IMG/VR virus record: IMGVR_UViG_3300031853_000006
Span: 52,897 to 116,896 of that record
Length of the DNA stretch: 64,000 bases
Strand: one strand, 5' to 3'
DNA from: a virus
Taxonomy: Duplodnaviria; Caudoviricetes
The position numbers were made by a program, and so were the translations under genes. A model generated the notes under the pieces. That model worked only from the letters and a program-made list of their open reading frames with translations, had not been told where the DNA came from and made no database searches. Position 1 is the first letter of the stretch; each line of letters opens with the position of its first letter. Shown here one piece after another: positions 3,417-47,000 of this stretch.

Positions 3417-5672
3417 ATGCCTAAAGCAATCAATCTAACTAGCACACAAGTAGAAGAACTGAAACAGCTAATTGCAGACGGCACTACACAGCAAAACGCT
3501 TGCAAACATTTTGGAATCTCCGAAAGTAAGTTAGCAGCTATTTGCAAAGAGAATAACATTGAACGCAAGTGGGTTAGAGAATATACTTGTGTTCTGTGCG
3601 GAAAGGTCTTCAAGGCATCTCATAAATCTGCTATATGTCCTGAATGCAAAGCTACTCCGAATGTGTGTGTAATCTGCGGAAAAGCATTCCCAAAGAAGTA
3701 TTTCCCTTACAATCAAAAGACGTGTTCCGCTAAATGTCGAGGAGCATACAGAGCTCAATCCGGCACCGCAAAAGCAGGAGCACAGAAAATGAAAGAAACT
3801 AAAATGGAGCGCTACGGCACGCTAGATCCTGCGGAAGTAACTAAGAAGAAAAAGGGAGGAGAACTTGATCCCAAGATCTGCCCATTGTGTGGAAAAGAAT
3901 TTGTACCGGATACTCCTAGACAAGTCTACTGCAAAGATGTTCATTATGTTCCCTGTCCGGTCTGTGGCAAGATGACAGAACTCAAAGATATTTCTATAGG
4001 CCCTCAGGCTTGCTCAGAAGGATGTAGAATGGCAAGGATCAATCAAACTTGCCTAGAGCGATACGGGAATAAGGACGCAGTCAATTCGGAGCACGCGAAG
4101 AAACTGGGAAAGCAAACATCGCTTAGAAAGTATGGCAAAGAATATTACATGCAGACTGATAAAGCGAAGCAGCATTACAAAGATGTTATCCAAGAGAGAT
4201 ATGGAGTCACAGCTCCTATAGCATATCCAGAATTCAAGGAGAAGGCTAAGCGGACTAATCTGGAGAAGTATGGAACAGAGTATGCTTCACAGTCTGAAGA
4301 GATAAAAGAAAAGGTTAGACAGACTAATCAAGAGCTCTATGGTGGGGCAGGCTTCGCTTCGCCTATATTACGCAAGCGCATAACAGAAACAAACAAAGAG
4401 CGGTATGGAGTAGAATTTCCAGTGAGCAGCCCAGAAATCCGACAGAAGATATCTCAGTCCCTTCGTGATAATTATGGAGTAGATAACTTCTGGAAAACCA
4501 AAGAAGACTTAGCAAGACGGATCAAAGATCCAAGAAAGATTGACGATTACTACGCATTTAAGCAAGATCCTAGAGGGTATGTAGAAAGCCATTACGAAGA
4601 TAAACCTCCAATCTATGTACTAGCAGATGATCTGGGAGTCACAGATACGCCCATTTATGATATACTCATCAACGCGAAATGTCAAGATGTAATAGATAGA
4701 ACTAAACAGTCTAGCATGGAGTATGAAATCGAGCACTTATTGCGAAAGCTGGTGCCCGATGCAGAGATATGGGTCAATTGTAGACGAGTTCTTCCTGAAA
4801 ATAAAGAGATTGATTTCTACTTGCCAGAATACAAATTCGGCATTGAATGTAATCCAACTATCACGCATAATTCTACAGTGTCTGCATGGAACCCTGGAGT
4901 AGATCCCGCGCTGCCCGTCAGTTATCATAAACAGAAATCAGAACAAGCCATGCAGGTAGGCGTGTTCCTATTTCATATATTTGGATATGAATGGACAAAC
5001 AAACGAGCCATAATAGAATCAATGATTGCAAATATCTTAGGCAAAAATACAAATAAGGTCTATGCGAGGAATACACAGATAATACAAGTAGACGCGCCGA
5101 CGGCTAAGAAGTTTCTAGACGATAATCACCGCCAAGGAGGGACTAACGCACCTATCAGATTAGGGCTCAAAGATAAGATTACTAACGAATTAGTGAGCCT
5201 CATGACCTTTGGAAAAACACGTCCTAGTATCGGAAAGGAGCAAGATGCATTAGATACAGATTACGAATTGATACGATTCTGCAACAAATTGGGTACATCT
5301 GTAGTCGGAGGAGCGTCGAAGTTATTTAAGCATTTCTTATCAGAATATGCCCCAACAAAAGTGATATCATTTTCTGACATAGCACATACTAAAGGAGGAC
5401 TGTACCGGACACTAGGGTTCAAGGATGTAAGTCATTCTGATCCCGGATATGTATGGGTGAAACATTACACTGACGAATACCGAAACCGTGTATCCTGCCA
5501 GAAGGCGAACCTTCTAAAAATGTTTGACGATGTGACAGAAGAGGATATTGAAACAAAGTCAGAACGAAAAATCATGATAGACCACAAATACGTACAGGTT
5601 TACGATAGCGGAGTCATACGATGGGAGTATACTCCAGTATCGTTAAATAGTGCAGAAGATGGAGGTGAATGA
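3417..5672 (+). CDS. Hef-like free-standing homing endonuclease (HTH, CxxC zinc ribbons, TxxERYG repeats, PD-(D/E)xK-like domain)
   Basis: 'EIDFYLPEYKFGIECNP..THNS..YH', 'YARNT..FLDDNHRQG..LVSLMTF..ELIRFC..VVGGASKLF' match the large-phage Hef-like family. Confidence 0.75.
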   Translation: MPKAINLTSTQVEELKQLIADGTTQQNACKHFGISESKLAAICKENNIERKWVREYTCVLCGKVFKASHKSAICPECKATPNVCVICGKAFPKKYFPYNQKTCSAKCRGAYRAQSGTAKAGAQKMKETKMERYGTLDPAEVTKKKKGGELDPKICPLCGKEFVPDTPRQVYCKDVHYVPCPVCGKMTELKDISIGPQACSEGCRMARINQTCLERYGNKDAVNSEHAKKLGKQTSLRKYGKEYYMQTDKAKQHYKDVIQERYGVTAPIAYPEFKEKAKRTNLEKYGTEYASQSEEIKEKVRQTNQELYGGAGFASPILRKRITETNKERYGVEFPVSSPEIRQKISQSLRDNYGVDNFWKTKEDLARRIKDPRKIDDYYAFKQDPRGYVESHYEDKPPIYVLADDLGVTDTPIYDILINAKCQDVIDRTKQSSMEYEIEHLLRKLVPDAEIWVNCRRVLPENKEIDFYLPEYKFGIECNPTITHNSTVSAWNPGVDPALPVSYHKQKSEQAMQVGVFLFHIFGYEWTNKRAIIESMIANILGKNTNKVYARNTQIIQVDAPTAKKFLDDNHRQGGTNAPIRLGLKDKITNELVSLMTFGKTRPSIGKEQDALDTDYELIRFCNKLGTSVVGGASKLFKHFLSEYAPTKVISFSDIAHTKGGLYRTLGFKDVSHSDPGYVWVKHYTDEYRNRVSCQKANLLKMFDDVTEEDIETKSERKIMIDHKYVQVYDSGVIRWEYTPVSLNSAEDGGE

Positions 5673-5673
5673 C

Positions 5674-7686
5674 ATGGCAACTTACACCTGCAAACGGTGC
5701 GGAAAACAGTTTGACCTAAGAGGTTTCAGCAAGTATTGCAAAGAATGTCGTGATTACTACACACCTTGCGTTATTTGCGGAACTCCAGTGCACCAGACGA
5801 ATCCGGAAAATGAAGCTAAAACATGTTCAAGAAAGTGTGCAGGGCTGTATAGAAAACAATCTGGAATAAGTAAAGCTACTGCGGAGAAATCGATAGCGAC
5901 TAAGAATAAGAAGTACGGCAACGGGTCAGGGGCTAAGTACAAGCCGAGGAAGTGTAAGCTCTGCGGAAAAGAGTTTATCCCAAATGGTTCAAAACAAGTT
6001 TACTGCAAGAATCCACATTACGGTCCGTGCCCTGTTTGCGGTAAGCAAACACTTATAAGGGAATTAAGCAAAGGACCGAACGCTTGTTCAGAAGAGTGTA
6101 GAATAGCTCTTATTACTAAGTTAGCGAGAGAGCGCGATAATACCGAGTCGCTGAAGAAGAACCGGCAGACTTGCTTAGAAAGGTACGGAGTTGAATATTA
6201 TTCCCAGACTAAAGAGTGGCGTGACAAAGTAGCCGAAACGTCAATGGAACATTACGGAACTACTTGCCCGCTAGCTAGCCCCGAAATTCATGAACAACTT
6301 GTTAAAACTAATATAGAGAAATATGGCTATGCTAATCCTGCGCAAGCTCCTGAAATAATTGAAAAGATTTCAAAGACTTTAGAAGAGCGTCATGGAGGTT
6401 GCGGAATGGCATCTGACGCAACACGTGAAAAGATATATGCAACTAACAAAGAACGCTACGGAGATATCCACCCTGCAAGGACTTTACAATGTAAGGAGAA
6501 GGGGAAGCAAACATCGTTGGCTCGTTACGGATACGAAAGCTATGCAAGTACTAAGGAAAGCATTGCACGTAGTATGCTAGATCCTAGCAAAATTGATGAC
6601 TTCTGGAGCTTTCGCGCAGATCCTGAAACGTATGTAACATCTCATTACAAAGTGAAACCATATGCAGATGAATTAGCTGCCGATCTAGGATTCAATGAAA
6701 CATCTGTATATGACATATTGATCAACTTCAACTGCAAAGATGTAATCAATCGTAGCAAAACTTCTATTATAGAAAGAGAGATGTACGAGTTCCTGACTAC
6801 ATTAGTCCCCGAATCTGAAATCAGAAAATGTGACAAACGGACAATCACCCCACTAGAATTAGATTTCTATCTGCCGAACTATAATTTTGCAATTGAATGC
6901 AATCCAACATATACTCACAATTCCTCATTCAAGTCCTTCGGAGAGGGTGAGCCTAAAACAACAGTGTACCACAGAAACAAAACAGATAAAGCAGAAGAAG
7001 CTGGGATATTTCTGATGCATGTTTTCGGGTATGATTGGCTTTATAAACAGGACATCATTAAATCGATGATACGCAACGCCTTAGGAAAATGTGATACTAC
7101 AATTTACGCCCGGAATACAGAAGTAAAAGAGCTAGATGCAAAAACTACTCGTGAGTTTCTCAACACTAATCACAGACAAGGTGATGCATCATCTCCTATC
7201 AGATTAGGTCTAATAGATAAGCAGACGAAAGAGCTTGTTTCAGTAATGACGTTTAGCAAACCTCGTACAACTATCGGAAGTAGTGCAGATGATCCTGAAG
7301 GATCTTATGAGCTTGTCAGATTCTGTAGTTTGCTAAATACTTCTGTAGTAGGAGGGGCTTCAAAACTATTCAAGTGGTTTAGTAGTAACTATAATCCTAC
7401 AAAGATAATATCATTCTCAGATAGAGCGCATACTCGAGGAAACTTATACAGCTCCTTAGGTTTTCACGAAGTTCGAAGATCTGATCCCGGTTACGCATGG
7501 GTCAACGTATACACAGAAGACTACAAGAGCCGTGTAGCCTGCCAAAAACACAAACTCCCTCAGCTATTTGACGACGTAACTGAAGAAGATATGAGCAATA
7601 AGTCAGAACGAATCATAATGATGGAACATAATTACGCGCAAGTTTATGACAGCGGGACAATACGATGGGAGCTAGAACCCCGTTGA
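5674..7686 (+). CDS. Hef-like free-standing homing endonuclease (paralog)
   Basis: Same architecture as 3417-5672; start moved to ATG 5674 after GGAGGTG. Confidence 0.75.
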   Translation: MATYTCKRCGKQFDLRGFSKYCKECRDYYTPCVICGTPVHQTNPENEAKTCSRKCAGLYRKQSGISKATAEKSIATKNKKYGNGSGAKYKPRKCKLCGKEFIPNGSKQVYCKNPHYGPCPVCGKQTLIRELSKGPNACSEECRIALITKLARERDNTESLKKNRQTCLERYGVEYYSQTKEWRDKVAETSMEHYGTTCPLASPEIHEQLVKTNIEKYGYANPAQAPEIIEKISKTLEERHGGCGMASDATREKIYATNKERYGDIHPARTLQCKEKGKQTSLARYGYESYASTKESIARSMLDPSKIDDFWSFRADPETYVTSHYKVKPYADELAADLGFNETSVYDILINFNCKDVINRSKTSIIEREMYEFLTTLVPESEIRKCDKRTITPLELDFYLPNYNFAIECNPTYTHNSSFKSFGEGEPKTTVYHRNKTDKAEEAGIFLMHVFGYDWLYKQDIIKSMIRNALGKCDTTIYARNTEVKELDAKTTREFLNTNHRQGDASSPIRLGLIDKQTKELVSVMTFSKPRTTIGSSADDPEGSYELVRFCSLLNTSVVGGASKLFKWFSSNYNPTKIISFSDRAHTRGNLYSSLGFHEVRRSDPGYAWVNVYTEDYKSRVACQKHKLPQLFDDVTEEDMSNKSERIIMMEHNYAQVYDSGTIRWELEPR

Positions 7687-7696
7687 TAACACAACG

Positions 7697-7733
7697 AAAA
7701 AGGTTGTATCTCTAATTGAGGTACAACCTTCTT
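7697..7733. terminator. probable bidirectional terminator
   Basis: AAGGTTGTATCTC / GAGGTACAACCTT stem between convergent genes. Confidence 0.65.
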
Positions 7734-7838
7734 GATATTTATGTAGAATGTGAATCTAGTGGAGTTTCGAGGTTAGATCAGTGTGTTAATTGGCCTTGCG
7801 TGTCATGACTCCTATTGCATGCTCTAAACTACTTGTTA

Positions 7839-8405
7839 CTATCGGCTAGCAACTTCTACAGCGCGTTTGATTACTTTCTTAGCATAGTCGAAAGCCTCTT
7901 CGTAAGATCCATATTTCTCTCCGTTTACAGTTATAATTCTTGTATAAGTTTCTAAATTTTCTATCTGCTCATCAGTCAAATATTCTTTAAGTTTTTCAGA
8001 TTTCAGCTCCTGATCTTTGTTATATTTCTGTGAAGCGCTGCGCTTGGGACTATGATTAGATATGCGCAATCTGATCCTGATATTAGCTATGACATTTCCA
8101 TCTGCGTCTGTTGCTAAGTAGTTATAGTAGTGTGAATGATCTGGACTAACATTTTTATATGTCCCAATCAATCCGTAGTTAACTTCGCACAGCCATTCTA
8201 TGTCCTCCATGAATGCTTCGAAATCATCTATCATCCATTGCTTAATCTTCTTCTTATGCCTCGAAATTACGGGCCTGGAGGGGAGTTTAGGATGCGGAAT
8301 ACGTTCAGCTGCAGCTATAGTTCGAGGGTCAATCGAATAACCTGCGTCTACTACTATGTCAATGATTGCAGGATTAGTTTGATTACCCCTAACAAATATC
8401 TTCAT
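7839..8405 (-). CDS. LRIS[DN]H-motif protein, paralog of 46485-47000 (possible RNase-like effector)
   Basis: Shares S-x-YY...LRISNH...I-x-V-x-G..Y..A motifs with 46485; RBS AGGAAGGAG. Confidence 0.75.
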   Translation of the reverse strand: MKIFVRGNQTNPAIIDIVVDAGYSIDPRTIAAAERIPHPKLPSRPVISRHKKKIKQWMIDDFEAFMEDIEWLCEVNYGLIGTYKNVSPDHSHYYNYLATDADGNVIANIRIRLRISNHSPKRSASQKYNKDQELKSEKLKEYLTDEQIENLETYTRIITVNGEKYGSYEEAFDYAKKVIKRAVEVASR

Positions 8406-8421
8406 ATCTATACTCCTTCCT

Positions 8422-8586
8422 AAAATATAAAAGCATCACTAGAAGTAGAACAGTATGTTCTCGGCCAAGACAACAATACCCACGATTCTCTAGTGATGCT
8501 AATATTCATAACGATTTACATCGTTGGGTACTTATCTCTATGTCTTGGCTTAATTTTATTATAAGCCCTGATAGGTGAAAAGTCAA
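8422..8586 (-). promoter_or_regulatory. sigmaA promoter plus structured leader RNA with internal ATCGTTA motif
   Basis: TTGACT(8586-8581)-17-TATAAT(8563-8558); stems 8549-8541/8472-8464, 8530-8520/8486-8477, 8500-8489/8443-8432; U tract before RBS. Confidence 0.7.
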
Positions 8587-8725
8587 GACTTTTCTTAATA
8601 TTTTCCAAATTACACAACGATTGCATATGAAAATCGTTAAATAATTCAAGAAGGGCACTTGACCCCTCACACGACGTAATGAGCAAATTACTTGAATCAG
8701 GATTCTAAAAGGAGAAGAACCGCCT

Positions 8726-9034
8726 ATGGATCACAGAGATAACAAAAAGAAAGTACTAAGTTCCGGAGGAAGCCGAAGATTATCGAATCAGCTGAATCCG
8801 TCGTTTACAACAGAACGAAGAAAAGATGAATGGTTGATTGATAGTTGCATTTACAAAGCCGATCAAAAGTTTTCTAATTCGCACTGCGGTAAGAGGTGTA
8901 AGAATAGGAATGTTAGCGCTCTTAAGTGCCGAGGCGGATGCGGTTGTGAATACTACTTGTCGACGAAAGAATGGCGTCTTTCAAAGAAGGGCAAAGCGAT
9001 TAACCTGAAGGAGGAGTTAGGTCATGCCAGATGA
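8726..9034 (+). CDS. hypothetical Cys-rich protein
   Basis: ORF with AAGGAG RBS; several Cys residues. Confidence 0.55.
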   Translation: MDHRDNKKKVLSSGGSRRLSNQLNPSFTTERRKDEWLIDSCIYKADQKFSNSHCGKRCKNRNVSALKCRGGCGCEYYLSTKEWRLSKKGKAINLKEELGHAR

Positions 9035-9389
9035 TAACTACGACAGCTCTATAATTGTCCAAAATTGGCTCAAAGATCACAACATTCCTTTCACTACAGA
9101 ACAGACATTCGAAGGACTTGTAGGACAGAGCGGAGCTCACTTGAGATTCGACATTTACCTAGAACAGCACAAAATGTGTATAGAAGTGGACGGGCAGCAG
9201 CATTATCGAGCGTGCAAAAATGTCAATATGAAAACTTTTCTCAAAAAGAGAAATCATGACAGGCGTAAAGAATGGTACTGTTATACACACGGGCTGTTCT
9301 TGTTGAGACTAGTCTGGGACGAACTCGCTTACTTAGATCAAATTCTCGGTTTCCTACTAAAATGGGAAGCGACGCTAGTACAAAGCTGA
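9024..9389 (+). CDS. PD-(D/E)xK (Vsr/DUF559-like) endonuclease
   Basis: 'EQTF..L....LRFDIYL....CIEVDGQQHY...HD..K..YC..HG..LLR' motif. Confidence 0.75.
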   Translation: MPDDNYDSSIIVQNWLKDHNIPFTTEQTFEGLVGQSGAHLRFDIYLEQHKMCIEVDGQQHYRACKNVNMKTFLKKRNHDRRKEWYCYTHGLFLLRLVWDELAYLDQILGFLLKWEATLVQS

Positions 9390-15532: not shown

Positions 15533-17653
15533 ATGATGGAAACAATGGAAGAACTTGTAGAGCAACTTAATAAAGCGTCAGACGCGTATTATAACCTAGG
15601 TAGACCGATCATGACTGACTTCGAGTTTGACGAACTGATCAACAAACTTCTCTATTTAGAAGAAAAAGAAAAGAGAGTCCTGCCTAACAGCCCGACACAG
15701 ACAGTTGGTGCTCCAGTAGTAGATACTCTTGAAAAGTTTGAGCATCCTTATCCTGCACTCTCACTAGATAAAACAAAAGACAAAAAGTTAATCGAGCAGA
15801 AATTCAGAAACGGTTTAGGGGCGTCTGATCCGCCGGACAGCAGACTCGTTGTGATGTATAAAGAGGACGGAGCAACAATCCAGGCCTATTACAATAACGG
15901 AACACTTGATAAACTCGTCACTCGTGGAGATGGGCATATTGGAAGCGTCATAACGCACAACGCAAAGTGTATCAAAGGACTCCCAGTAAGAATAGCCTAC
16001 AGGGGTCACTTAGTAGTGCGAGGCGAAGCACTGATGTCTTACAAAGAGTTCGAGCGGATCAATGAAAAGCTTCCAGACGAGGAGAAGTATCGAAATCCGA
16101 GAAACCTTGCAGCGGCAACACTCACAATGCTCGACAGTAATGAAGCAGCCGAAAGGCAGTTAGTCCTGAAAGCATTCAACTTAGTCCACATCGATATGGA
16201 CGATGAGACTAATGCAAATGCATCGAAGGAAGCCATTGTTCTTCAGAATAGTTTCAACGAACGTCTGAACTATCTGAATGCACTCGGCTTCTCAACCGTT
16301 GATAGAGAACTGACACCCCTCAGCGGCCTGCCGGAAGTAATGGATAAGTTTAGCGATAATGTTAAAGTTTATCCATATCCGGTTGACGGATTAGTGATCG
16401 CAATGAATAGTTACTCAACAACAAAAGATCTTACGGGAACAGAACATCACCCTAATATACTGTCAGGATATGCTTTCAAGTGGGCAGATGAAGAAGTAGA
16501 AACAGTCTTAAGAGAAATCGAATGGTCGCCTTCTAGGACAGGTCTGTTGAATCCGGTGGCGATTTTCGATCCAGTTGAGATTGACGGAACTATCGTCCAA
16601 AGAGCATCGCTTCATAACTTTTCAATCATGCGGGAGATGAACATCATGGTAGGCGATCGTGTTAACGTCATAAAAAGCAACCAGATAATTCCACAGATCA
16701 CAAAGAACCTGGATAAGGGCAATCATCCTAACTTCTATGATTCATGGGATTGGATTGTGAGAGAACTTATCGGCAAATGTCCGACTTGTGGCTGCACTGC
16801 AACAATTCAGAGATCGCCGGAAGGCGTTGAAACAGTCTACTGCCCCAATCAGGATTGCCCGGAAAAACTTCTTGGCAAGTTTGAGCATTTCTGCTCAAGA
16901 GAGTGTATGAACATTGACGGAATGTCCTACGAAACAATCAAAAAGTTGTACGATAAGGGCTTCATAAAAGAGTATTCCGATTTCTTCAGGTTAGAGAATG
17001 AACCGGCAATATCATTACTTCCCGGTTTTGGCAAACAGAGTTGGAAGAAAATGTACCAAGCAGCTGAGAAAGCAAAAACAACTGACTTTGTTCGGTTCTT
17101 CACTGCTCTTGGTATTCCGGACATCGGAAAAGGTCAGTTGAAGATCTTGAAGAAACATATCAACGAGAATTACGAAAGCATTGCAAACCAAGTTGGAGTT
17201 GACCCTGAAGGTTATAACTTAGGTGTCTTGTTATCTGCGATGGGCAGGACTAACTACGCATTTGAGAAGATCGACGGCTTTGGATCAATTCTTGCCAATA
17301 ATCTCAGGACTTGGCTCCAGGAAAGATTTGACTTCGAGGGAACTTGGACACCCGAAATTAACGTCTACGGCTGCCTGACATTCACAGATAAGCCTGCAAC
17401 GGCTGCGAAAGACAGTGCAATTTCCGGTCAGTCCTTCTGCATAACAGGTAAACTAGTTTCCTATAAGAATCGACAAGCTCTCGTGGATGTAATTGAAGCG
17501 AACGGGGGCAAGTGGGTAGATAGTGTGTCAAGTAAGACTAACTACCTTATCAACAACGATACAGAAAGTAGTTCGGGAAAGAATAAAAAAGCAAAAGAGC
17601 TTAATATTCCTATAATAAGTGAAGAAGAATTCAATCAAATGATAGGAGGGTGA
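15533..17653 (+). CDS. ligA: NAD-dependent DNA ligase
   Basis: KEDG adenylation motif, TRGDG, RGE, NPRNLAA, DGLV, AFKW, SRTG, zinc finger, HhH, C-terminal BRCT. Confidence 0.95.
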   Translation: MMETMEELVEQLNKASDAYYNLGRPIMTDFEFDELINKLLYLEEKEKRVLPNSPTQTVGAPVVDTLEKFEHPYPALSLDKTKDKKLIEQKFRNGLGASDPPDSRLVVMYKEDGATIQAYYNNGTLDKLVTRGDGHIGSVITHNAKCIKGLPVRIAYRGHLVVRGEALMSYKEFERINEKLPDEEKYRNPRNLAAATLTMLDSNEAAERQLVLKAFNLVHIDMDDETNANASKEAIVLQNSFNERLNYLNALGFSTVDRELTPLSGLPEVMDKFSDNVKVYPYPVDGLVIAMNSYSTTKDLTGTEHHPNILSGYAFKWADEEVETVLREIEWSPSRTGLLNPVAIFDPVEIDGTIVQRASLHNFSIMREMNIMVGDRVNVIKSNQIIPQITKNLDKGNHPNFYDSWDWIVRELIGKCPTCGCTATIQRSPEGVETVYCPNQDCPEKLLGKFEHFCSRECMNIDGMSYETIKKLYDKGFIKEYSDFFRLENEPAISLLPGFGKQSWKKMYQAAEKAKTTDFVRFFTALGIPDIGKGQLKILKKHINENYESIANQVGVDPEGYNLGVLLSAMGRTNYAFEKIDGFGSILANNLRTWLQERFDFEGTWTPEINVYGCLTFTDKPATAAKDSAISGQSFCITGKLVSYKNRQALVDVIEANGGKWVDSVSSKTNYLINNDTESSSGKNKKAKELNIPIISEEEFNQMIGG

Positions 17654-46277: not shown

Positions 46278-46470
46278 TTGACAAATTCATAGAAATATCA
46301 TATAATATACTTACACGCTACATTAAACCTATTATATCATTGCTAGAGGAAGTTACAAATACGTAAATCGTTATATTAAAGCGTAATCCGCCGTCTATTT
46401 CGTATTTGTAATTCTGTTTTCCTCTAGCAAGAAAAACACGATTCCAAACAATAGGCGGCGTTTTATATTT
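46278..46470 (+). promoter_or_regulatory. sigmaA promoter plus structured leader RNA with internal ATCGTTA motif
   Basis: TTGACA(46278)-17-TATAAT(46301); stems 46340-46351/46419-46430, 46352-46363/46401-46412, 46389-46399/46450-46460; TTTTATATTT before RBS. Confidence 0.7.
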
Positions 46471-46484
46471 CAGGAGGAGCATCC

Positions 46485-47000
46485 ATGAAAAGATTCATTA
46501 AATCATCGCAAACAGCTGAAGGAGTAAACAGAATTGAAATTGATTTCTACGGAGTTGATCTTGAAGAGGAGGTCGAAGCTGCCAGAAATAATCCAAGGAA
46601 GGTATTCAAGAATGCTGATGTAGTCATTCGAGATGTTAAGGCTTACTTAGAAGACAAAGGATTGAAAATTTTGCGAACTTCTAGAAGTAATCATAAGAAT
46701 TCAGACTCTACATACTACGATGTCGATATTAAAGTAACTAACAATAAGGGTAAGTATGAATTCATTTACCTTCGTATATCTGATCATCCTGAATCAAGTT
46801 TGAATGATCTTCCGAGAAAGAACTATCATGATAGAATAACTCGTTCGTACAAAGGGCTAAAAGATACTGATAATGTTGACGGCTTGTATCACTACGCATC
46901 TATTGAAGTAACAGGAAAGCAATTTAATAACTACGACAGAGCAATGAATCGAGTCAAAGAGCGTATTGATGAGATTCTGAAAGGAGTTGGTTTAGAATGA
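46485..47000 (+). CDS. LRIS[DN]H-motif protein with MKRxIxSS tag, paralog of 7839-8405
   Basis: 'SDSTYY...YLRISDH...IEVTGKQFNNYDRAM'. Confidence 0.75.
   Translation: MKRFIKSSQTAEGVNRIEIDFYGVDLEEEVEAARNNPRKVFKNADVVIRDVKAYLEDKGLKILRTSRSNHKNSDSTYYDVDIKVTNNKGKYEFIYLRISDHPESSLNDLPRKNYHDRITRSYKGLKDTDNVDGLYHYASIEVTGKQFNNYDRAMNRVKERIDEILKGVGLE

Follow-up and report, generated by a model that had tools for sequence, protein, structure and literature searches.

A structured leader with two competing predicted folds recurs ahead of LRIS[ND]H genes of uncultured phages

In trp-type attenuators, T-box leaders, riboswitch platforms, and the "tug-of-war" riboswitches (bioRxiv 10.64898/2026.06.17.733018), a terminator that ends in a run of U residues competes with a structure upstream of it, and one segment with two possible partners lies between the promoter and the Shine-Dalgarno (SD) sequence. 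In the pIP501/pT181 (PMC4981023) and RnaG/icsA (PMC2879508) systems, an RNA pairs with the 5' part of the nascent leader and thereby induces a terminator upstream of the gene, with the specificity residing in complementary arms. Here, we describe a leader that likewise combines a predicted U-run terminator with a competing upstream structure and in which a segment that we call B'A' has two possible partners. It precedes, on the minus strand at what we call locus A, a gene of the LRIS[ND]H family in a 64,000-nucleotide (nt) stretch (hereafter, the window) of the phage record IMGVR_UViG_3300031853_000006. The parent virus record is linear, spans 116,896 bp, is an estimated 78% complete, and originates from bovine gut metagenomes.

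The recurrence of this layout, the pairing kept between its arms, and the behavior of shuffled sequences support the leader as a genuine structured RNA element, conserved and linked to LRIS[ND]H genes, as had been proposed for it from the sequence of the window. The design occurs in at least 10 loci and is probably an undescribed RNA switch controlling an uncharacterized protein family. Our favored account, on which we are evenly divided, is that the leader acts as a transcription attenuator with an interlocked terminator and would control an uncharacterized early accessory protein.

Parts of the leader and its two predicted folds

The original prediction placed at locus A a promoter, three pairs of complementary arms, and a ribosome-binding site. 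Every one of these elements was found on the minus strand between 8586 and 8403, in the order given there, and the leader itself is ~125 nt long. The parts of the cassette are listed below.

8558-8586, minus strand: host-type (sigma-70/sigma-A-like) promoter, with TTGACT at 8586-8581, a 17-nt spacer, and TATAAT at 8563-8558 (11/12 consensus)
~8551-8549, minus strand: predicted transcription start, at the first base of arm A
8549-8541, minus strand: arm A, GCCAAGACA, the 5' strand of helix P1, which pairs with A' over 9 bp (100% complementary)
8530-8520, minus strand: arm B, TACCCAACGAT, the 5' strand of helix P2, which pairs with B'
8519-8508, minus strand: the 12-mer GTAAATCGTTAT, a copy of the motif AAATCGTTA[AT], in the apical loop of the 5' hairpin; candidate phage-specific -10-type promoter
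8500-8488, minus strand: arm C, AGCATCACTAGA(G), the 5' strand of the terminator-closing helix, inside P1/P2 and 1-2 nt upstream of B'
8486-8477, minus strand: arm B', ATCGTGGGTA, the 3' strand of P2
8472-8464, minus strand: arm A', TGTCTTGGC, the 3' strand of P1
8464-8486, minus strand: the B'-A' switch segment, whose partner is either A/B (5' hairpin) or the downstream linker 8447-8463 (rod interior)
8447-8461, minus strand: linker L3, either folded on itself as a hairpin (AGAACA-TAC-TGTTCT) or paired with B'A' in the terminator fold
8444-8432, minus strand: arm C', (T)TCTAGTGATGCT, 13 bp with C including one G-U
8432-8422, minus strand: U-run TTTTATATTTT, abutting C'; the 3' half of an intrinsic-terminator-like element
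8420-8413, minus strand: SD, GGAAGGAG, read from the sequence
7839-8405, minus strand: open reading frame (ORF) of 188 amino acids (aa), LRIS[ND]H family, with its ATG at 8405
7700-7730, strand-neutral: terminating hairpin at the end of the cassette, shared with a convergent plus-strand homing-endonuclease gene; predicted bidirectional terminator

An independent repeat search recovered the inverted repeats A:A', B:B', and C:C', and a repeat search reported no tandem repeats in 8380-8620. A pair of crossing stems summing to 22 bp, as observed here, arose in 0 of 300 dinucleotide shuffles of the leader, for which the maximum was 16. The Rfam 15 covariance models gave no gathering-score match in the whole window, and at permissive thresholds only chance-level matches (E >1) were obtained in 7700-8800.

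Two folds of nearly the same stability are predicted for this RNA. The 5' hairpin built from A:A' and B:B' (8464-8549) is predicted at -27.9 kcal/mol (z -4.96), and the 3' rod (8423-8502) at -27.8 kcal/mol (z -4.95); B'A' and the linker pair inside this rod as a helix closed by C:C', with a 6-nt loop at one end and the U-run at the foot of the rod. Segment 8464-8486 (B'A') is common to both predicted folds, and its pairings with A/B and with the linker are mutually exclusive. Corresponding values for the cassette at locus B were -30.3 kcal/mol (z -7.6) for the 5' hairpin and -25.0 kcal/mol (z -4.6) for the rod. When the RNA was cut at the U-run, the gap between the forced-terminator fold and the fold in which C' is free stayed within ~4 kcal/mol in 8 of 9 leaders. 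The distance from C to C' is 43 nt, internally paired in the predicted rod, and a simple terminator scan made no call here. In addition, the 3' part of arm B (AACGAT) has an alternative partner in ATCGTT of the motif, with which it gives a hairpin with a GTAA loop.

Two near-equal and exclusive folds, as modeled here, are the 1:2 / 2:3 logic of an attenuator, to which the predicted C:C' helix would add an extra clamp. The 5' hairpin encloses arm C, which supplies the 5' strand of the terminator; the folds are thus interlocked in their topology, with helices that cross. We favor the following course of events. The cassette, consisting of a host-type promoter, a cis-regulatory leader, an SD, the gene, and a terminator, would be a self-contained accessory gene of a large uncultured phage. 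Pairing of B'A' with A/B would yield the long 5' hairpin, and pairing of B'A' with the linker would yield the interior of a rod that, closed by C:C' and followed by the U-run, would be an intrinsic terminator. Transcripts from the host-type promoter would form the 5' hairpin first, so that the terminator is hindered and the gene is on; if A/B were removed or occupied, the terminator would form and the gene would be off. The product would be an early accessory protein with a weakly endonuclease-like predicted fold. We prefer the 5' hairpin as the antiterminator because it would form first in transcription and because structures that abut a terminator suppress termination, an effect described for structures just upstream of terminators (bioRxiv 10.64898/2026.06.17.733018).

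Other types of leader were considered and set aside. A leader peptide was dropped because the sole candidate frame, 29 codons at locus A, is not conserved and has no SD, with none present at locus B, and a riboswitch aptamer because the conserved sequence is too scant. A lambda nut-like boxA/boxB site was dropped because the hairpins are not conserved, and a resemblance to the T4 RegA operator because the motif does not overlap start codons.

Recurrence of the layout across loci

We compared ten distinct leaders, namely those of loci A, B, and C of this phage and L002, L003, L007, L010, L016/17, L018, and L022, the last seven being metagenomic phage loci in which the layout recurs ahead of homologues with arms that are unrelated in sequence yet complementary. 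In all ten, the order is P1 5' arm, C, P1 3' arm, C', at least 4 U residues, and SD, and in all ten a stable stem is followed by the U-run. The P1 5' arm measures 9-19 bp, P2 is often present, the linker has 13-27 nt, C' pairs over 7-13 bp, and the end of arm C lies 0-15 nt from the 3' arms. This crossing-stem layout was beyond the reach of shuffled sequences in 8 of the 10 leaders.

Within the phage itself, the layout is repeated at locus B (46278-47000, plus strand), where the arms (12, 12, and 11 bp) are unrelated but the 12-mer and a TTTTATATTT-SD block (U-run/SD) are identical to those of locus A. The divergence of the arms between these two loci had been claimed beforehand and stood up to the comparison: they are unrelated in sequence, and their pairing is kept. 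A third paralogous cassette, locus C, is located outside the window (G000 16532-17416, also listed as L019; gene 16757-17416) and encodes the motif HLRFSDH. Its topology is the same, with A (CGTCAAGACAAA) and its complement enclosing C (ACGCCACTC), and with C', and TTTTT after it, lying outside them. The P1 3' arm of locus C also carries TTGACG and then, just before C', a degenerate copy of the 12-mer, ATCAATCGGTAAGT; transcripts from a second promoter at this place would skip the terminator instead of running into it. When the whole genome was scanned for long-range terminators that an upstream helix crosses, only the leaders of the three paralogous LRIS[ND]H genes were returned.

The arms change while their pairing persists. 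The L022 protein is 92% identical to that of locus B, but the P1, P2, and C arms of the two leaders differ with pairing kept, and in a fourth helix (D) both sides have changed, from AATCGT/ACGATT to AATCTT/AAGATT. A sequence-only MAFFT alignment of the four B-type leaders placed 95.8% of the D helix and 92.9% of the C helix in paired positions, with 3 compensatory pairs in the two jointly. MAFFT followed by RNAalifold on eight 5' hairpins gave no consensus fold, the arms being unrelated in sequence. A search of the genome for trans targets of the leader arms returned none beyond chance 11- to 12-mers. Arms complementary to their own locus only would fit a self-only (orthogonal) action, as read from the divergence of the arms.

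At two further loci, a small gene stands in the place of the leader, between the promoter and the LRISNH gene. In L015 (1798-1977), it encodes a 59-aa HTH_3 (XRE-type) protein (24.2 bits), and in L004 (5833-5994), it is a 53-aa ORF without a family match. This exchange suggests that tight control of the gene is needed.

The 12-mer motif and competing accounts of control

The 12-mer in the loop had been presented as specific to the leader, and this part of the original prediction was refuted: the core AATCGTTA is a genome-wide signal, with 21 copies in the genome versus 5.8 expected. Of these 21, about 17 lie between genes in the orientation of the gene that follows, typically 7-50 nt ahead of the SD, and the extended consensus reads AAATCGTTA[AT][AG]TA. 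Related contigs contain 28 copies in 93.7 kb, nearly all of them on the coding strand. From its sequence and placement, the AAATCGTTA[AT] motif probably serves as a phage-specific promoter, although a hairpin and a U-run come immediately after several of its copies, an unusual arrangement for a promoter. The motif scan located the following copies in the window.

8632, 13746, 19765, 32072, 41191, 42245, 46366, plus strand: motif copies
8509, 27875, 51205, minus strand: motif copies; more copies lie in the genome outside the window

Host-type promoters in this phage follow a stereotyped 29-nt pattern (TTGACAAATTCATAnAAATATCATATAAT) that extends well past the two hexamers, and the spacer of the locus A promoter differs from that of this set, whose members in the window are given here.

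3333, 9427, 14915, 29017, 36322, 42197, 46278, 47937, 50465, plus strand: stereotyped 29-nt host-type promoters

No sigma70_r2, sigma70_r4, or T7-type RNA polymerase was found in the 78%-complete record, in which the polymerase control was silent as well.

The position of the motif adds a possible layer of timing to the attenuator. Transcripts starting at the promoter-like motif in the apical loop of the 5' hairpin would lack A/B and have only the terminator fold available; as motif-started transcripts could only form the terminator, control would depend on the promoter used and hence on time. A further step, which we regard as improbable, is that a promoter for phage transcription, built into the antiterminator loop, yields a same-strand, self-terminating RNA antisense to its own early leader, making the cassettes three orthogonal temporal switches. 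With the onset of phage-specific transcription, each cassette would then silence its own early gene by RNA-induced termination. The corresponding alternative to purely cis-acting control, which we also think unlikely, has an internal AAATCGTTAT promoter producing an RNA of ~80 nt (~8502-8423) whose B'A' pairs in trans with nascent A/B, flips the terminator, and turns the gene off, with locus-specific arms keeping the three paralogous cassettes independent. Indeed, the motif lies between arms A/B and arm C in 6 of the 10 leaders, the predicted fold of the short RNA is a clean terminator rod, B'A' matches A/B of its own locus as a perfect complement and has no other such partner in the genome, and RNA-induced attenuation has precedents in pIP501 RNAIII (PMC4981023) and RnaG (PMC2879508). 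However, B'A' of the short RNA would be partly paired with the linker, the motif is found upstream of the whole structure in L002 and L010 and only as degenerate copies in L007 and locus C, orthogonality brings no obvious benefit if all copies are silenced together, and the promoter role of the motif is itself putative.

Several of our observations weigh against the attenuator reading that we favor. Given that the motif precedes the whole structure in L002 and L010 and is only degenerate in L007 and locus C, the part of this reading that invokes an internal promoter cannot be general. C:C' has no nucleotides in common with A:A'/B:B', so a pseudoknot in which both are formed is sterically conceivable; in that case, the 5' hairpin would not have to act as an antiterminator, and regulation could run in the reverse direction. 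Covariation in P1/P2 carries no formal score because MAFFT misaligns the unrelated arms; in the alignment of B-type leaders, these two helices score poorly although each is paired in its own sequence. In addition, the homologues of L011-L014, L020, L021, and L008 have no leader and follow a plain promoter or are operonic, and no RNA run is listed among the sequencing runs that contain this sequence.

Autoregulation is, in our judgment, somewhat less probable than control by a same-strand RNA. Here, the LRIS[ND]H protein or another phage protein would bind the leader and shift the balance between hairpin and terminator, in the manner of ribosomal-protein or T4 gene 32 leaders. In its favor, the genome scan placed the leader before LRIS[ND]H genes alone, leader and gene co-vary by locus, regulator-type genes take the place of the leader at two loci, and the predicted fold of the protein is endonuclease-like and thus of the nucleic-acid-binding type. 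RNA binding by the protein is nevertheless putative, very little single-stranded sequence is conserved besides the genome-wide motif, and proteins that are 92% identical have quite different leader arms.

A type III toxin-antitoxin-like pair, in which terminated leader RNA accumulates and neutralizes a toxic protein made by read-through, seems to us very unlikely. The order of promoter, structured RNA, terminator, and gene is that of ToxIN, protein regulators replace the RNA at two loci, and the predicted fold is endonuclease-like. Unlike the ToxIN RNA, however, the leader has no tandem repeats; the protein is unrelated by sequence (Pfam, PHROG) to the ToxIN toxins (ToxN/AbiQ/CptN), neither it nor its 107 relatives match any Pfam or PHROG toxin, its toxicity is putative, and the alternative folds and the U-run point to control in cis. 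Least probable of all is a static element, a constitutive A/C pseudoknot serving as a 5' stabilizer or partial terminator (insulator) that fixes expression at a low level without switching: P1 does begin at the predicted +1 in loci A and C, L003, and L007, as 5' stabilizers in Firmicutes begin at the transcript start, and linkers of 13-27 nt could span P1/P2 with no nucleotides shared between C:C' and P1/P2, but such an element needs neither the near-isoenergetic nested folds seen in most leaders nor a linker kept complementary to B'A'.

The protein family, its setting, and known systems

A profile search for the family returned 173 representative clusters, mostly of 160-200 aa and all metagenomic. 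The proteins of loci A and B had been thought to be related, and this was borne out by hhalign (89.9%, E 1.7e-6 over 163 columns) and by structural models with the same order of core elements; the locus C protein gave a weaker match of the hhalign type to the family core (72.7%). Sequence searches of Pfam, PHROGs, and the Protein Data Bank (PDB) with the protein and 107 relatives returned nothing meaningful, Foldseek returned nothing at E <= 0.001 against PDB and BFVD, and ESM Atlas gave no usable match. Scans of the IMG/VR and GTDB genomes with the A-type profile detected no relatives, and a metagenome scan detected 3 loci only. The longer relatives have no informative fused domain, and one FliD_C fusion looks like a mis-assembly.

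The AlphaFold models have a mean predicted local distance difference test (pLDDT) score of 87 for A and 83 for B, with low confidence over the N-terminal ~45 residues (60-69 in A; about 50-70 in both). In both, the core consists, in order, of a helix, three strands, helix(es), a strand, and a helix. An exhaustive structural aligner gave Z scores of 4.1-4.8 for A and 4.6-6.2 for B, all below 8, and I-Bth0305I, Hjc, VRR-NUC, Bax1, R2 endonuclease, and tRNA-splicing endonuclease recurred in both lists, with EndA also matched. On these models, the fold is weakly endonuclease-like, and the case for the nuclease activity that had been proposed for the protein is weak. The predicted order of helix, three strands, helix, and strand fits that of the PD-(D/E)xK fold (Hjc, I-Bth0305I, VRR-NUC, and tRNA-splicing endonuclease); in contrast to these nucleases, the family lacks the conserved D...(D/E)xK acids and conserves S, Y, R, S, H, N, and Y instead. 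The columns conserved at >=85% are S87, S91, Y93, R114, S116, H118, N161, Y168, and A171. Among acidic positions, only D61 in helix 1 is conserved (78% acidic); strands 2 and 3 have no conserved acid, and the family thus lacks the canonical metal-dependent site. The protein may be a nuclease that works without metal or a binding module.

The variant N-terminus attributed to the locus A protein (MKIFVRG...TIAAA) is present as described; the role as virion cargo that had been suggested for the protein is putative. An N-terminal MK[RK]x[IV] signature occurs in 26 of the 152 ORFs of the genome and in most family members; these 26 ORFs, otherwise unrelated, start MK[RK]x[IVL][HKRY][AS][AST], as in MKRWIHAS and MKRVIRAS. 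A processing or targeting tag is one possibility for this signature.

46485, 47481, 20593, 20986, 30608, 31013, 31213, strand not given: examples in the window of ORFs with the N-terminal signature (ORF prediction)

Two homologues deserve mention for their surroundings. The one in L008 directly follows a 171-aa gene and lies beside two RtcB RNA-ligase genes and DnaA-like genes (242-2878, 3436-4651), a neighborhood that would be of interest if the family cuts RNA. In L020 (2090-2125), homologue P0012 seems to extend upstream as (M)KRYVHPITINIDV with ACG as the expected start codon, which could reflect either an error in the sequence or a non-canonical start.

The locus A cassette stands alone on the minus strand among homing-endonuclease genes. 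Two large paralogous ones (3417-5672 and 5650-7686, plus strand) and a short homing-endonuclease-like ORF (9024-9389, plus strand) flank it, with PHROG matches down to 5e-106, and no other gene of this part of the window is on the minus strand. This position fits a mobile accessory gene. The INPHARED phage collection gave no match, by DNA or by protein, and four DNA sequencing runs yielded no contig spanning the leader and no informative variants.

Should the folds function in the predicted way, these leaders would constitute an undescribed family of transcription attenuators, absent from Rfam, in large uncultured gut/rumen phages, with a second promoter built into the switch and with phages timing the expression of accessory genes by RNA alone. 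Synthetic biology could draw naturally orthogonal parts from this design, since its specificity would reside solely in arms that vary freely. The leader also marks a family of 173 clusters, without annotation in the libraries searched, as tightly controlled phage genes, and we consider the LRIS[ND]H family reasonable candidates for host-takeover or anti-defense functions.

With regard to known systems, the 12-mer resembles the gp36 promoters of phiEco32 (PMC8948821) in being a short, single, recurrent intergenic element, co-oriented with the gene and near the SD; the gp36 consensus differs from AAATCGTTA[AT], and the promoter activity of our motif is putative. The regulators of pIP501/pT181 and RnaG/icsA are transcribed from the opposite strand, whereas no plus-strand sigma-70-like promoter was found opposite the leader in 7600-8800; any regulator RNA here would be same-strand and would use the 3' arm of the inverted repeat, with a putative action in trans. 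For the c4 antisense RNA of phages P1 and P7, specificity resides in short complementary sequences that differ between related phages. That RNA acts on the ribosome-binding region with Rho-dependent effects, whereas the output element here would be an intrinsic terminator. The c4 RNA (Rfam RF01695) is likewise same-strand and upstream of its target, and our leader has no Rfam match. Compared with attenuators, T-box leaders, and riboswitches, the leader is set apart by having no Rfam match, leader peptide, or recognizable aptamer and, above all, by its architecture: the competing hairpin encloses the 5' strand of the terminator, giving a pseudoknot topology, and its loop holds a promoter-like motif.

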